NCBI GenBank assembly: GCA_035411585.1
Contig: DAONTI010000005.1
Location: 20,976-84,975, forward strand
Reading direction: 5' to 3'
Length of the DNA stretch: 64,000 nucleotides
DNA from: Verrucomicrobiota bacterium
GTDB lineage: Bacteria; Verrucomicrobiota; Verrucomicrobiia; Limisphaerales; MWDV01
Below are positions 39,674 to 50,048 of this stretch, piece by piece. The notes beneath the pieces are model-generated. The model ran no database searches. It was not told the origin of the DNA and was given only the letters and a program-made list of their open reading frames with translations. Position numbers and translations under genes: made by a program. The number at the start of each line of letters is the position of its first letter. Positions within the stretch are counted from its first letter, which is position 1.

Positions 39674-41269
39674 ATGAAACACGCAACCCTGAGCCAACGA
39701 CTCCGCAGCCCGGTCTACCTGATGGTAGGTTTTCTTCTGCTGGGCATGGGCTGTGCGCTCTGGACCCAGCATCGGTACGCCCAGGCGCAACACCGGGTGG
39801 AAGATCTCGCCACCCTGGCACACCGGGTCCATTTTGACCTGTTACAGATGAGCGAATCCCTGCGGGGGTTGCTGCTGGATCCGCACAGTGTGACGGAGCA
39901 AAAACGGCGCCGCGACGCCGAGGACGATCTCGTGAGAACCCTCAATGACATTGAGACGCGGTTTCCCCATCAACCCGACCTGATCAGCCGCGTGCGCACC
40001 CTGCGCGAGTATGCGGAGAAACATCTGGCCGTCTTCCAAACCCAGGTGCTGCGGGAGCTGGAGAATAATCCCGAAAAAGCCTTGGAATGGTACACCCAAA
40101 AACGCGCGGAAACCATCCGGTTGCGCGACCGGTATCTCCAGGATTTTGCCGAACGGGTGGCAGTGGTGAAATCGCAGGAAACGGACGCTGGGCGCAAAGC
40201 CACGGTGTTGGGTACGGTGGGGGTGTTGGTCGCCCTTCTGCTCGCCGGGTTGACCGTGCATATGCATGCCCGCGCCCTGATGCGGCCGTTGGGGGAATTA
40301 AGCGCCGCACTGGAGCGCATGCGCCAGGGGGATTTCAGCCAGCGCATCCAATGGCACCGCACCGATCAATACGGTGTCATTGGCGAGGGATTGAACCGGC
40401 TGGCGGATGACCTCTCGAAGCTCGTCGGCCAAGTGCAACGGTCGGGCATCCAAGTGAACACCACCATCACCGAAGTCTCCGCCACCTCCCGCGAGCAACA
40501 GAGCACCACCACCGCCATCGCCGCCACCACCGTCGAAATCGGCGCCACTTCCAAGGAGATTTCGGCCACGTCCCGCGAACTGGTGCAGACCATGAGCGAG
40601 GTGGCCGATGTGGCCGGTGAAACCGCCCACCTGGCCAACCGCGGCCAGACCGCCCTTACCCGCATGGAGGCCATCATGCGCGAAATCATGGAAGCCTCCG
40701 GCGGTGTCACCGCCAAGCTGGCTGTGCTGAACGAGAAAACCACCAACATCAACTCCGTGGTCACGACCATTACCAAGGTCGCGGATCAAACCAATCTGCT
40801 CTCGCTCAACGCGGCCATTGAAGCGGAGAAAGCCGGGGAGTACGGACTGGGGTTTGCGGTGGTGGCCATGGAAATCCGCCGGCTCGCCGATCAAACCGCA
40901 GTGGCCACGTACGACATCGAAAAGATGGTCAAAGAGATGCAATCCGCCGTGGCGGCGGGGGTGATGGGAATGGACAAATTTTCCGAGGACGTGCGGCGTG
41001 GCGCGGCGGAAATCCGTCAGGTCAGCATTCAACTGGCGCAAATCATTCATCAGGTCCAAACCCTGACGCCGCGGTTCCAAACCGTAAACGAAGGGATGCA
41101 AACCCAGGCCGCCGGCGCGCAACAGATCAGCGAAACCCTGGTGCAACTCAGTGAATCAGCCCATCAAACCGCCGAATCTCTGCGCCAGTCCAATCTGGCC
41201 ATCGAACAATTGAACGAAGCCGCCCGGACACTGCAAGCCAGTGTGGCGCGGTTTAAGCTGGAGTCTTAG
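39674..41269 (+). CDS. methyl-accepting chemotaxis protein (WspA position)
   Basis: Two TM helices flank a ~170-aa helical periplasmic domain, then HAMP, then the signalling hairpin [34 protein letters not shown]. Confidence 0.9.
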
Positions 41270-41271
41270 GC

Positions 41272-46275: not shown

Positions 46276-47427
46276 ATGCGAATCGCCATCGTCAATGACC
46301 TGCCGACGGTGGTTGAAGCCATGCGTCGGGTGGTGCTGTCCACCGGCGAACATGGTGTGGCTTGGGTTGCGGCTGATGGCGGCGCGGCGGTGGAATTATG
46401 CGCGCGGGAACGGCCCGATTTGATCCTGATGGATCTGACCATGCCCCGGATGGGCGGCGTTGAAGCCATTCGCCGGATAATGGATCGCTCGCCCTGTCCC
46501 ATCGTCGTCGTGACAGCGGAGGGGAAACAAGATCATGCCCGGATCTTTGAGGCCATGGGCGCCGGGGCGTTGGATGTCCTCCATCTTCCCGGACTCGTAT
46601 CGTCCGTCACCGCCGAGACTGCGGACAAGTTGCTGGCCAAGATTGATACAATCCGACGGCTCACCGGAATTCGCACCCGGAGCTTGTCTGCCAAGCCCGC
46701 CCGCGATTTAACGCCGGGTTCCCTGGCGTCACGTTCGCACCCGGCCAGCGCAACATCCGGTCTGAATGCAGCCAGCCCAGCGCCGCTGGTGGCCATTGGC
46801 GCATCCGCCGGCGGGCCGGCGGCGTTGGCCCGAATTCTGGGTTGTTGGCCGGCGGATTTTCCCGCCGCCGTGGTGATTGTGCAGCATGTGGACACGCAAT
46901 TCGCGCCGGGCTTGGTCCGTTGGTTGAGCAGCCAGACTCCGTTGCCGGTGCGGCTCATCCAGTCGGGGGATCGCCCGCAGGCGGGTCTGGTGTTGGTCGC
47001 CAACGGCGAGGATCATCTGGTGTTTGATAAGGCCCAGCGTTTGGTTTATTCGCCAAACCCCACGGGCGCAGCGCTTCGGCCGTCGGTGGATTTATTTTTT
47101 CAAAGCATCGTGAAATACTGGCCAGGCGACGTGATCGGAGTCGTGCTGACCGGGATGGGCCGCGACGGCGCGCGCGGGCTGAAAATGCTGCGCGAAGCGG
47201 GGCAGATAACCGTGGCGCAAGATCAGGCGACCAGTACGGTTTATGGCATGCCCAAAGCGGCGGCCGAATTGCGGGCCGCCCGCGAGATTTTGCCTTTGGA
47301 AAACATTGGACCGCGCCTGGCCATGCTGGTGCAAACCCGCCGGCGCCGTCCCCGTCCAACACCGCCAACCTCCGCCCGGGTTGGCGCGACCGGCTTGACC
47401 CGCAAAAACCCCCAATTCCACAACTGA
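46276..47427 (+). CDS. cheB: CheB protein-glutamate methylesterase (REC + esterase; WspF position)
   Basis: REC ([20 protein letters not shown]) plus the esterase blocks [21 protein letters not shown]. Confidence 0.9.
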
Positions 47428-50048
47428 TGGCCACACCCCCTTCCACCCCTTCCGCCGCTCCGGGAACGCCTTCTCCACCCGAACCCACCCCGGCGCCGTC
47501 CGCTTCTGAATCCGTGCCCGCCGAATACGGCGCCATGGTATTGTTGGTGGACGACCAGGCCATGGTATGCGAAGCCGTTCGCCGTCTCCTGACCGACCAA
47601 GCGCAACTGGATTTGCATTATTGCGCGGACGCGCGCGAAGCCCTCACGGTGGCCCAGCAAATCCGGCCGACGATCATCCTGCAGGATTTGATCATGCCGG
47701 AATTGGACGGGCTCACGCTGGTCCGCCAGTATCGGACTCATCCAGCCACGCGGGACATTCCCATCATCGTTCTCTCGACCAACGAAGATTCGCGCGTCAA
47801 GGAAGAAGCGTTCGCGGCGGGGGCCAACGATTATCTCGTGAAACTGCCGGACCAGGTGGAATTGGTCGCACGGATCCGCTACCACACGCGGGCGTACCTG
47901 AACCAGCGGCAACGCGACGCCGCGTTTCGCGCCCTGCGCGAGAGCCAGCAGCAACTGGTGCAAAACAACGCGGCGTTGGTGGCCTTGAACCAGAAGCTCG
48001 CGGAAGCCACGCTGGCGAAATCGGAGTTCCTCGCCAACATGAGCCATGAAATCCGTACCCCCATGAACGGGGTGATCGGCATGGTCTCCCTGTTGTTGGA
48101 CACGGAACTGACCGATGAACAGCGGGAATACGTGGAGGCCGCCCGCAGCAGCGCCGACGCCCTGCTGACCATCATCAACGATATTCTGGATTTCTCGAAG
48201 ATCGAGTCGGGCCGCCTGGAGTTGGAACATCATCCCTTCGAACTGCATACCTGTATTGAAGAAGCGCTGGATTTGCTGGCGCCCCAGGCCGCGGAGAAAG
48301 GGCTGGACTTGGTTTATCAAGTGGATGATGCGCTGCCGAAAATCCTGATTAGCGATGTCACGCGGTTGCGGCAGATTCTGGTGAACTTGATCGGCAACGC
48401 CGTGAAATTCACCGCCGCCGGGGAAGTGGTGGTCAGCGTGGCCGCCGCGCCCGGGGGTCGCAAAGGACGGGACTTCAATCCGGCGCCGGGCAGCCGTTCC
48501 ACTTCGCTGGGTCGGCGAACGTCGGAAACGTCATCATCGCCGGCGGAACCGCCGCCGTGTTTGCTGCACTTTTCCGTGCGCGACACCGGGATTGGCATTC
48601 CCTTGGAAAAACAACACCGGCTCTTCAAATCCTTTCAACAGGTGGACGCTTCCACCACCCGGCAATACGGCGGCACCGGCTTGGGCCTCGCTATTTGCGA
48701 TCGGCTGGTCGAGTTGTTGGGCGGCCGGATTTGGGTGGAAAGCGCGGCGGGGCAGGGGGCCACCTTTCATTTCACCATGGTCGCGGGTACGGGCCCTGCC
48801 AACGTTCCGGCGGCCTGGCAGATGGAACAACCGCAGTTGCGCGGCAAACGTCTTTTGGTCGTAGAGGATAACCCCACCAATCAGGAATTGGTGCGGAGCT
48901 GGGCCGGGCGGTGGGGATTGCGGGTGACGACGGTGGACAGCGCCGCCGCCGCGTACGAACGCGTTGCGGCGGAGGATTTTGATCTGGCCTTGGTGGATCA
49001 GTATTTGCCGGAGACGACCGGCATCATGGTGGTGGAGGAGTTGCGCCGCCGGCGCCGCACCGCCACGCGGCCGCTGCGGGTCCTCATGGCGGGCCGGCTT
49101 TCCCTCGCTGGACGCAGTGAGGGACCGGGGACCGGTTGTCCCGATGTCGCCGGCTGGTTGCATCAACCGTTGCGGCCCGGGCAGTTGTTGGAGGCGGTGT
49201 GTCGTGCCTTGGGCGTGCGGGTGCGGCATGAGCAGAGTGCGCCGCCCGCGCCATTGTTGGATGGCACCCTCGGCGAACGGCTTCCGTTGCGGGTGCTGGT
49301 GGCGGATGACAATCCCATCAACGTGCGGGTCGGCCAGAGTGTCTTGCGCAAGTTGGGTTACAACGCGGATGCCGCCGCCAACGGCTTGGAAGTCCTGTCC
49401 GCCTTGGAACGCCGGGCCTATGACATCCTGTTCCTGGACGTGCAAATGCCCGAACTCGACGGCTTGGAAACCGCCCGGCAGATTTGCGCGCGGTGGTCCC
49501 GGGACAAACGCCCCCGCATCATCGCCATGACCGGCGCCGCGCTGCGCGGCGACCGGGAACGTTGTCTGGCCGCCGGCATGGATGACTACATCAGCAAGCC
49601 GGTGCGGGTGCAGGAGTTGCAGGCAGCCATCGAACGCTGGGGCCCGACCAAGATTCGCGAGTTTGATACGGCCACGTTTTTCTCGCGCCCCGCCAGTCCG
49701 GCGGCCAGTCTGTTGGATGAATCAGTGCTGGACGAATTGCGCGAATTACCGCCCGCGGAGGGCGTGTCGCTGCTCCGCGAGTTGGTGGATCTCTATCTGG
49801 AATGCGCTCCGGAACGCTTGGAGCAGCTCCGCGCCAGCCCCGACGATCCCGCGCAAATCAAAATGCACGCGCACACGTTGCGCGGCATGAGCATGAGCCT
49901 GGGCGCCCGCGAGGTGGCCGCCCGCTGCCTGCGTTTGGAACACGCTGCCGCGGCGGGCAACCTGACAGACGCGCCCGCCGCCATCGCCGAGTTGGCATCC
50001 GTCTTTGCTCAAACCTGCCAGGCCTTGCGCGCCTTGCGGGAAACTTAA
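47427..50048 (+). CDS. hybrid sensor kinase: REC-coiled coil-HisKA-HATPase-REC(degenerate?)-REC-Hpt
   Basis: REC1 [28 protein letters not shown]-box [20 protein letters not shown] boxes [29 protein letters not shown]2 [27 protein letters not shown]3 [27 protein letters not shown]. Hpt [14 protein letters not shown]. The ATG overlaps the cheB stop (TGATG). Confidence 0.9.

Follow-up and report, generated by a model that had tools for sequence, protein, structure and literature searches.

A predicted phosphorelay kinase in place of the diguanylate cyclase WspR in a Wsp-type operon of a Verrucomicrobiota bacterium

Introduction

What does a Wsp-type chemosensory system control where no diguanylate cyclase is encoded with it? 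This question is raised by an operon at positions 39674-50048 of a 64,000-nt stretch of DNA from an uncultured Verrucomicrobiota bacterium (assembly GCA_035411585.1, contig DAONTI010000005.1, positions 20,976 to 84,975 of the forward strand), hereafter the window. Its seven genes follow the order of wspABCDEF-wspR of Pseudomonas, and the last of them codes for an 873-aa protein with a receiver (REC) domain at its N-terminus (REC1) and no GGDEF domain. A preliminary description, made from the sequence, had proposed that a multi-step phosphorelay kinase takes the place of the diguanylate cyclase in this Wsp-ordered operon. Three things were known before: kinase-type regulators of chemosensory clusters for alternative cellular functions (ACF) had been catalogued in 2012, one kinase partner of a Wsp system had been found genetically, and one transfer from a CheA to a second kinase had been found biochemically.

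Results

The output protein combines a WspR receiver and stalk with a kinase module

In a PDB search, residues 29-187 of the output protein matched WspR of P. aeruginosa (3BRE, E 1.4e-61) and of P. syringae (3I5A, 1.5e-60). A metagenome contig (L154), whose own WspR matches 3I5A with an E value of 1e-185, served as the Pseudomonas-type reference operon; REC1 is 68.7% identical to its WspR over 131 residues without a gap, and with the stalk included the identity is 67% over 152 residues. The two sequences stay parallel through RIRYH(S/T)R(A/S)Y...QRDAA(F/Y), after which WspR continues into GGDEF and the present protein into a kinase module. As read from the alignment, the GGDEF domain is replaced within the stalk by HisKA-HATPase-(pseudo)REC-REC-Hpt (Hpt, histidine phosphotransfer domain), while the receiver and stalk of WspR are kept. 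Two parts of the WspR architecture, receiver and stalk, are therefore present and the third, GGDEF, is missing from both the protein and the window, so that this is not an R-type Wsp system. The homology of REC1 and stalk to WspR considerably strengthens the proposal of a Wsp-type operon in which a phosphorelay kinase replaces the cyclase.

Residues were assigned from an alignment of 21 homologues, which share about 62% identity, and by direct residue checks. REC1 has all five signature residues of a receiver (D42, D43, D87, S117, K139). In the kinase core, all 21 homologues keep H207 as well as the N, G1, F and G2 boxes unchanged, and in both PDB and NCBIfam the core matches hybrid kinases of the BarA/TorS/ArcB type best; the C-terminal 680 residues score 477 bits against NCBIfam BarA and 457 bits against TorS, all below the equivalog cut-offs. 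This part shares the H1-D1-H2 layout of the unorthodox kinases BarA, ArcB, TorS and EvgS, and the corresponding sites in HisKA(H)-HATPase-REC(D)-Hpt(H) are all present as H207, D671 and H816, the last nearly invariant among the homologues. REC3 is accordingly the expected acceptor from H207, as judged by its intact receiver residues. REC2 is the least conserved part of the protein: its Lys is replaced by Gln (Q580) and its Ser/Thr position is lost, both here and in the closest relative, and it is probably a pseudo-receiver in this lineage. The unorthodox kinases differ in having a membrane-anchored sensor, whereas the present kinase has a WspR-type receiver as its N-terminal input and an extra, degenerate receiver ahead of D1.

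No hydrophobic window and no membrane segment was found in the whole 873 aa, so the kinase should be soluble, with REC1 as its only input domain. An AlphaFold model of the monomer (mean predicted local distance difference test score, pLDDT, of 70; predicted template modelling score, pTM, of 0.37; low pLDDT through the HisKA helices) gave confident folds for REC1, REC2, REC3 and Hpt, with Hpt as a helical bundle and REC2 as a confidently modelled REC-like core plus a disordered loop (residues 559-569). A single unbroken helix, in which confidence drops past about residue 190, extends over residues 143-224, joining the terminal REC1 helix and the stalk to the HisKA helix with H207. Residues 1-33 are Pro-rich, and the ATPase domain holds a low-complexity insert rich in Ser, Pro, Arg and Gly (residues about 340-379, window 48444-48563) that is disordered in the model and limited to this lineage and, in a different form, to the homologues P0002 and P0073. 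Apart from residues 1-33 and about 342-374 within this insert, the chain is covered by Pfam domains and the AlphaFold model, and a GGDEF or other hidden effector domain, which the preliminary description had named as a finding that would count against it, was ruled out. An alternative start of the gene at 47535 was rejected in favour of 47427, because the overlap of the cheB stop with the kinase start is kept in the relative L001.

The six upstream genes code for Wsp homologues

The junctions between the seven genes, from the receptor gene (MCP, methyl-accepting chemotaxis protein) to the kinase gene, are +2, -14, +6, -4, +126 and -1 nt, with the cheB stop overlapping the kinase start (TGATG). 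Open reading frame (ORF) calls and Pfam searches on all seven proteins returned the genes, junctions and domains as first described (Table 1), and the start of the receptor gene is backed by its full-length alignment to L001. The cluster is covered by contigs from four metatranscriptome libraries (bioreactor and activated sludge), and those listed span the five junctions from the receptor gene to cheB as well as the cheB-kinase junction (47028-47444); these contigs are unstranded and of low depth and may include carried-over DNA. Scans for promoters and terminators returned counts equal to those in shuffled sequence.

Under the working criterion of Kessler et al. for a Wsp system, synteny plus at least 30% identity (PMC8552884), the gene order is kept, the six core proteins are 39-59% identical, and the output receiver is 68.7% identical. 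Compared with the reference operon L154, identity is 41% for the first CheW, 41% for CheR-TPR (tetratricopeptide repeat), 39% for the second CheW, 50% for CheA-REC, 51% for CheB and, with 4 gaps in 364 residues, 59% for the cytoplasmic part of the receptor; compared with the Burkholderia cluster L165, the six proteins are 39-61% identical. The cytoplasmic part of the receptor aligns with WspA of the Pseudomonas type, Burkholderia and Mesorhizobium at 58-65% identity and 0-4 gaps over 330-364 aa, and hydrophobic windows near residues 12-33 and 181-203 point to two membrane segments around a periplasmic region of ~145 aa. CheA-REC, with H52 in its Hpt domain, a HATPase, a CheW-like P5 and D700 in its receiver, is 50-51% identical over its full length to WspE of the Pseudomonas type and of Burkholderia. 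CheB, whose receiver has the phospho-acceptor D53, matches NCBIfam NF009206/PRK12555 at 433 bits (cut-off 342), a subfamily model on which WspF of the Pseudomonas type and of Burkholderia reach about 500 bits.

The second CheW carries an N-terminal motif of four cysteines, C26, C38, C47 and C50 (C-x11-C-x8-C-x2-C; nt 43193-43267), which is kept as CW.[RK]IG..GD.SC..L....C[RL]NC in Pseudomonas-type, Burkholderia, Mesorhizobium and verrucomicrobial loci. When this protein was compared by tblastn with 72,556 plasmid and secondary-replicon records, 41 records matched, 40 of them from residue 24-26 on and hence including the motif region; all were from proteobacterial genera, and the three that were opened all contained wsp genes. 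The motif may therefore serve as a marker of WspD.

Clusters of the ACF type are marked by CheR-TPR (PMC3447774), and the further features of this class are present as well: a CheA with a fused receiver, a multidomain response regulator and no flagellar or pilus genes nearby. The assignment follows the features summarised in PMC3447774, with the class of the MCP judged indirectly from its near-gapless alignment to WspA. As far as sequence comparison can tell, the operon is thus a bona fide member of the Wsp family with an ACF-type pathway, and not merely Wsp-ordered. It has in common with Pseudomonas Wsp the order of seven genes, with each protein homologous, and in particular the four-cysteine motif of WspD, the TPR of WspC, the subfamily of WspF and the receiver and stalk of WspR. 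The differences lie in the output, GGDEF there but HisKA-HATPase-REC-REC-Hpt here, in the host, Proteobacteria there but Verrucomicrobiota here, and in the LdcA-like gene that is appended here. The output would presumably be a phosphorelay and not cyclic di-GMP synthesis.

All five receivers in the window, located with Pfam and with six-frame profiles, lie in CheA, CheB and the kinase. GGDEF, EAL, CheZ, flagellar genes and stand-alone receivers (CheY) were absent from the 64 kb, as previously claimed, in Pfam searches on all predicted genes and in a six-frame search with REC and GGDEF profiles built for this analysis. An assembly chimera was ruled out, since the stretch 46000-51100 with cheB, the kinase gene and the eighth gene recurs, at 95-100% of the sampled words, in 20 metagenome runs independent of one another; the stretch is present in activated-sludge, wastewater and soil metagenomes.

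Table 1. Genes of the operon and domains of the output kinase, in positions of the window.
Feature	Position	Strand	Basis
MCP (WspA-like)	39674-41269	+	ORF call, Pfam HAMP and MCPsignal
First CheW (WspB-like), 169 aa	41272-41781	+	Pfam CheW
CheR-TPR (WspC-like)	41768-43111	+	Pfam CheR_N, CheR and TPR families
Second CheW (WspD-like), 237 aa	43118-43831	+	Pfam CheW at residues 92-229
CheA-REC (WspE-like)	43828-46149	+	Pfam Hpt-HATPase_c-CheW-Response_reg
CheB (WspF-like)	46276-47427	+	Pfam Response_reg and CheB_methylest
Output kinase, 873 aa	47427-50048	+	Pfam Response_reg (three), HisKA, HATPase_c and Hpt
REC1 plus stalk shared with WspR	47535-48014	+	REC1 residues 37-155, coiled-coil stalk 156-196
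Kinase core	48015-48779	+	HisKA 197-262 (H207), HATPase_c about 305-451
REC2	48849-49208	+	Residues 475-594, receiver fold, D524 present
REC3	49293-49640	+	Residues 623-738, intact: D627, D628, D671, T702, K724
Hpt	49779-50012	+	Residues 785-862, H816 in H-x-x-[KR]-[GS] motif
Eighth gene, Peptidase_S66 LD-carboxypeptidase (LdcA-like)	50075-51028	+	Pfam S66 N and C domains

Apart from these results, the spacer between cheA and cheB (46150-46275) was unusual: it measures 126 nt here and 0-20 nt in relatives, and substitutions at strain level were dense at 46207-46270 in the RNA-library contigs.

A proposed path from receptor to relay

The reading that I regard as probable is that of a Wsp-type operon whose WspR-type receiver drives the phosphorelay kinase through transfer from CheA~P to REC1. 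By what is known of the family, the WspA-like receptor would control the WspE-like CheA, and adaptation would be provided by the WspC-like CheR-TPR and the WspF-like CheB. CheA phosphorylated at H52 would pass its phosphate to D87 of REC1; the register or packing of the stalk helix would then shift and switch autokinase activity at H207 or the balance between kinase and phosphatase, and phosphate would travel from H207 to D671 in REC3, to H816 in Hpt and from there to one or several response regulators with genes at other places in the genome. The transfer to REC1 and the relay are suggested because REC1 falls into the WspR/WspH receiver family, whose partner is WspE; the transfer is suggested further because the kinase lacks both a membrane segment and any further input domain, and because transfer from CheA3 to CheS3 in Rhodospirillum centenum is a precedent (PMC3868531). 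A signal through the stalk is suggested because the helix is continuous in the model.

Relatives carry three types of output on the same receiver and stalk

Relatives were collected by scanning metagenome contigs with REC1 plus stalk only as a query, and the best 80 loci were typed by tblastn and by reading the output ORF; as the scanned loci are biased to high similarity in REC1, the proportions are indicative only. Three types of output were found on the same receiver and stalk: a kinase with Hpt (~855 aa), a kinase without Hpt (~720 aa), which by Pfam stops after REC3, and GGDEF (~354 aa). The GGDEF-type loci were mostly Pseudomonas-like, while four were divergent, including one (L132) with a stalk like that of the kinase type. 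Among the kinase-type loci with enough upstream DNA (n=46), the kinase gene followed cheB in 35 and followed cheA directly in 4 where cheB was missing, placing it at the 3' end of a Wsp-type cluster in 39; a lack of conservation next to cheB in relatives, which the preliminary description had named as counting against it, was not observed. All 26 informative GGDEF-type loci followed cheB. The complete order of MCP, CheW, CheR, CheW, CheA, CheB and output was also present in L001 and in 30+ metagenomic relatives. In a protein search, at least 8000 scored homologues of the kinase were found in soil and wastewater metagenomes, and the named homologues pointed to Verrucomicrobiota as the host. A type IIA topoisomerase B subunit encoded in the window gave the same indication: it is 98-99% identical to its nearest database proteins, the one of these with a name (98%) comes from a 'Verrucomicrobia bacterium' MAG, and almost all of the named matches are verrucomicrobial.

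In a neighbour-joining tree of CheA built without bootstrap, all full-length kinase clusters formed one clade, with the kinases lacking Hpt and L132 branching just outside, and this clade and its neighbours stood apart from the Pseudomonas-type, Mesorhizobium and Burkholderia clusters. GGDEF and kinase outputs thus swap on the same stalk in one clade, L132 being a GGDEF type among kinase types, and the upstream machinery and REC1 are all of the Wsp type, all of which would suit a relay that still ends in cyclic di-GMP: Hpt would phosphorylate a distant REC-GGDEF or REC-EAL/HD-GYP regulator, at the price of two extra steps, and the output would be neither transcriptional nor otherwise new. Nevertheless, such an ending is unlikely, given that genes for GGDEF or EAL proteins are missing from the 64-kb window and from the neighbourhood of the kinase gene in relatives, and that in Burkholderia, whose kinase-output Wsp system is the only one studied, wsp mutations left cyclic di-GMP unchanged and a DNA-binding regulator, RowR, was implicated (PMC8552884).

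Several points weigh against a path from CheA~P through REC1 to a relay. The transfer itself is deduced, from an organism that is uncultured, and the structural model is that of a monomer of low overall confidence (pTM 0.37, low pLDDT in the HisKA helices). To this are added the missing bootstrap of the CheA tree and the unstranded, shallow RNA contigs. No terminal response regulator was found in the window or beside the kinase gene in the relatives examined: the ORFs downstream of the kinase gene in nine relatives, including xylose-isomerase-like, CvpA-like, endonuclease/phosphatase, HAD and carbonic anhydrase ORFs, contained no regulator, and none was adopted as the end of the relay from the flanks of eight orthologues of the eighth gene (S66). 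Finally, 7 of the 46 kinase-type relatives had no che gene upstream, six of these being only 48-54% identical to the window's kinase and the seventh (L139) having 760 nt of upstream sequence, and L002/L003 and L171 carry the kinase and S66 genes without adjacent che genes.

These che-less loci, and the stronger conservation of S66 (70-86% identity) relative to the kinase (about 62%), would be expected if the kinase and the LD-carboxypeptidase formed an independent two-gene module that merely stands beside che genes here, with REC1 served by another kinase. I consider this highly improbable: the receivers of WspR and WspH, which have WspE as their partner, share 60-69% identity with REC1, 39 of the 46 relatives have the gene at the 3' end of a Wsp-type cluster, cheB and kinase overlap in their stop and start here and in L001, RNA contigs cross that junction, and a Wsp cluster at another place in the genome may serve the che-less relatives.

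Some relatives deviated in their content of adaptation enzymes. Four loci (L098, L104, L113 and L125) read MCP-CheW-CheW-CheA-kinase with neither cheR nor cheB, a Wsp-like variant without adaptation enzymes, and in L095 and L135 cheR alone was missing. A separate scan of genome contigs with an alignment of the full-length kinase was discarded, having keyed on the generic HisKA motifs FLANMSHE and IRTPMNGV; its best 80 matches were unrelated hybrid kinases of at most 45% identity. Only one of these 80 had che genes upstream, an unrelated hybrid kinase of Acidobacteriaceae (L045) preceded by MCP, CheR and CheB genes, and hence another che cluster that ends in a kinase.

Comparison with other kinase-type outputs

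The H-type Wsp of Burkholderia cenocepacia has the REC-kinase WspH and no GGDEF, and RowR is no more than a candidate target (PMC8552884). In the survey of Kessler et al. (2021), Wsp systems were found only in beta- and gammaproteobacteria and the H-type only in Burkholderia, with no H-system having a 3' regulator or kinase (PMC8552884). By its sequences, the kinase clade described here falls outside the statements on host range, on the range of the H-type and on the 3' kinase.

The H-type cluster of B. cenocepacia was recovered from a secondary replicon as L165 by way of the WspD-like protein. It resembles the present operon as a Wsp cluster with a receiver-kinase that lacks GGDEF, and its receiver is 60.5% identical to REC1; over the whole protein, identity to the output kinase falls to 33.6% with 78 gaps. 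The wspH gene lies 5' of wspA (L165; PMC8552884), whereas the kinase gene here lies 3' of cheB with stop and start overlapping. WspH is a REC-HisKA-HATPase protein of about 360 aa without extra REC or Hpt, compared with 873 aa and REC-REC-Hpt here, its kinase core is of the EnvZ/PhoR and not of the BarA/TorS type, and its fusion point comes right after QRDEA, before the stalk, and not within it. In the CheA tree, the CheA of the WspH cluster groups with a GGDEF-type cluster, away from the kinase clade. These differences in position, size, core type, fusion point and CheA grouping argue for an independent fusion, and a kinase would consequently have taken the place of the GGDEF domain in Wsp systems on at least two occasions.

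The first match in Burkholderia (L164; B. cenocepacia NZ_CP091013.1 2171444-2193944) was not WspH and was set aside. It proved to be a separate pair of cheB and a WspR-like REC-stalk-GGDEF gene on the same replicon as L165, with no other che gene within 11 kb upstream.

The gene order of the che3 cluster of R. centenum is not known to be Wsp-like. In this system CheA3, a CheA-REC protein, phosphorylates REC1 of a second kinase, CheS3 (PMC3868531), which bears out CheS3 as the precedent that the preliminary description had given for a kinase fed by a chemosensory cluster. Being of the ACF type, with a CheA-REC that feeds a REC-containing kinase, it provides the biochemical precedent for the transfer to REC1. 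It differs in that a single-domain CheY3 encoded in the cluster is the final acceptor, whereas no CheY occurs in the present cluster or window, and the architecture of CheS3, by its description, is different from that of the present kinase (PMC3868531).

In R. centenum, receivers also modulate the phosphorylation levels of both kinases (PMC3868531). By analogy, the kinase might be a modulator or phosphate sink without a downstream regulator, its REC1 draining CheA or its Hpt feeding back to the receivers of CheB and CheA. The lack of a terminal regulator nearby would be in keeping with this, as would the sister kinases of ~720 aa, which lack Hpt, so that the Hpt step appears to be dispensable in some lineages. 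However, a mere sink would hardly account for the strict conservation of the kinase and relay residues across many homologues that share about 62% identity. The gene also stands where wspR does, and the protein keeps the stalk by which WspR transmits activation. A role of this kind is improbable, and the path from CheA~P through REC1 to the relay remains the preferred reading.

In the 2012 catalogue of Munoz-Martinez et al., about 40% of the regulators of CheR-TPR clusters carry HisKA and HATPase, some with REC and HPT (PMC3447774), and the general class is therefore already on record. The entries were only listed there, have PAS domains or lack Hpt, and a junction with the WspR stalk was not noted (PMC3447774). 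The verrucomicrobial architecture is not among them: Ellin514 and Chthoniobacter were counted and are missing from Table S2 (PMC3447774). The preliminary description was accordingly right in holding that the class is not wholly new, and it overstated the novelty, since WspH (PMC8552884) and this catalogue (PMC3447774) are closer precedents than it had allowed for.

What appears to be new, from the sequences compared, is the fusion of WspR receiver and stalk, in place and independently of WspH, to a full H1-D1-H2 relay, together with how abundant it is in Verrucomicrobiota, the gradation of outputs carried by a single stalk and the conserved LdcA-like gene. Current models are not overturned and the value of the finding is moderate. 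The range of true Wsp systems now reaches past the beta- and gammaproteobacteria, and GGDEF, kinase without Hpt and kinase with Hpt on one receiver and stalk form a ready series for studying the control of unrelated effectors by a phosphorylated receiver through a coiled coil. A soluble kinase with a WspR-type receiver as its sole input would make a simple system for phosphotransfer in vitro, and the conserved LdcA-like gene offers a concrete starting point for finding the physiological role.

A complete R-type wsp operon was also found in an alphaproteobacterium, on the conjugative plasmid pMLb of Mesorhizobium japonicum (L166; NC_002682.1 204-18857), with genes for MCP, CheW, CheR, CheW, CheA-REC, CheB and a 'PleD family' REC-GGDEF protein. 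This operon, too, falls outside the statements of Kessler et al., and a plasmid of the pMLb type is a plausible vehicle for the spread of Wsp between phyla. Novosphingobium replicons likewise matched the WspD-like protein in tblastn.

An eighth gene for an LdcA-like carboxypeptidase

The kinase gene is followed after 26 nt on the same strand by a gene of the Peptidase_S66 family. Its product is closest to the muramoyltetrapeptide carboxypeptidase of PDB entry 6UUK (1.2e-53), scores 217 bits against NCBIfam LdcA NF008424, below the cut-off of 378, and has no signal peptide; it is predicted to be a cytoplasmic LdcA-like LD-carboxypeptidase. The gene lies directly 3' of the kinase gene in L001, in L002/L003 and in 10 of 20 complete full-length metagenomic loci. 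In L103 it lies upstream of the receptor gene in divergent orientation. L100, L104 and L113 clearly lack it, and the Pseudomonas-type loci have none. Read in the reverse direction, from the flanks of eight S66 orthologues selected by the length of their contigs alone, five had a receiver-kinase immediately upstream, and four of these five also had cheA-cheB, one of them with a kinase without Hpt; the genes on the far side of S66 differed in each case. The kinase-S66 junction was spanned by a single RNA-library contig (X25, 50033-50378), and the eighth gene appears to be co-transcribed with the kinase gene.

It is conceivable, if doubtful, that Wsp sensor, phosphorelay kinase and LD-carboxypeptidase form one conserved unit in which the LdcA-like enzyme takes a functional part in the pathway. 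The enzyme could then be the effector that the pathway regulates, or it could supply or remove a muropeptide cue. If this were true, the operon would link envelope or surface sensing of the Wsp type to peptidoglycan turnover in Verrucomicrobiota, and an output of this kind has no described counterpart in Wsp or other chemosensory systems.

One of the S66 orthologues without a receiver-kinase upstream (L172) had a stand-alone receiver of 141 aa in convergent orientation just downstream and a CHASE-type hybrid kinase 2.7 kb upstream, which may be a coincidence.

Genes flanking the operon

Divergently upstream of the receptor gene, at 34172-39264 on the minus strand, are genes for an F5/8 type C (galactose-binding-like) protein, a PMT-family glycosyltransferase and an alpha-L-rhamnosidase, a surface-glycan theme beside an operon for surface or envelope sensing; these neighbours are not kept in L001. 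On the other side, at 51100-54371 on the minus strand, are ORFs for a PEP-CTERM protein (51100-52230) and for an S8 subtilase (51783-54371); since their listed coordinates share 448 nt, the start of one of them must be mis-set. An S8 peptidase gene comes after the S66 gene in L002 as well.

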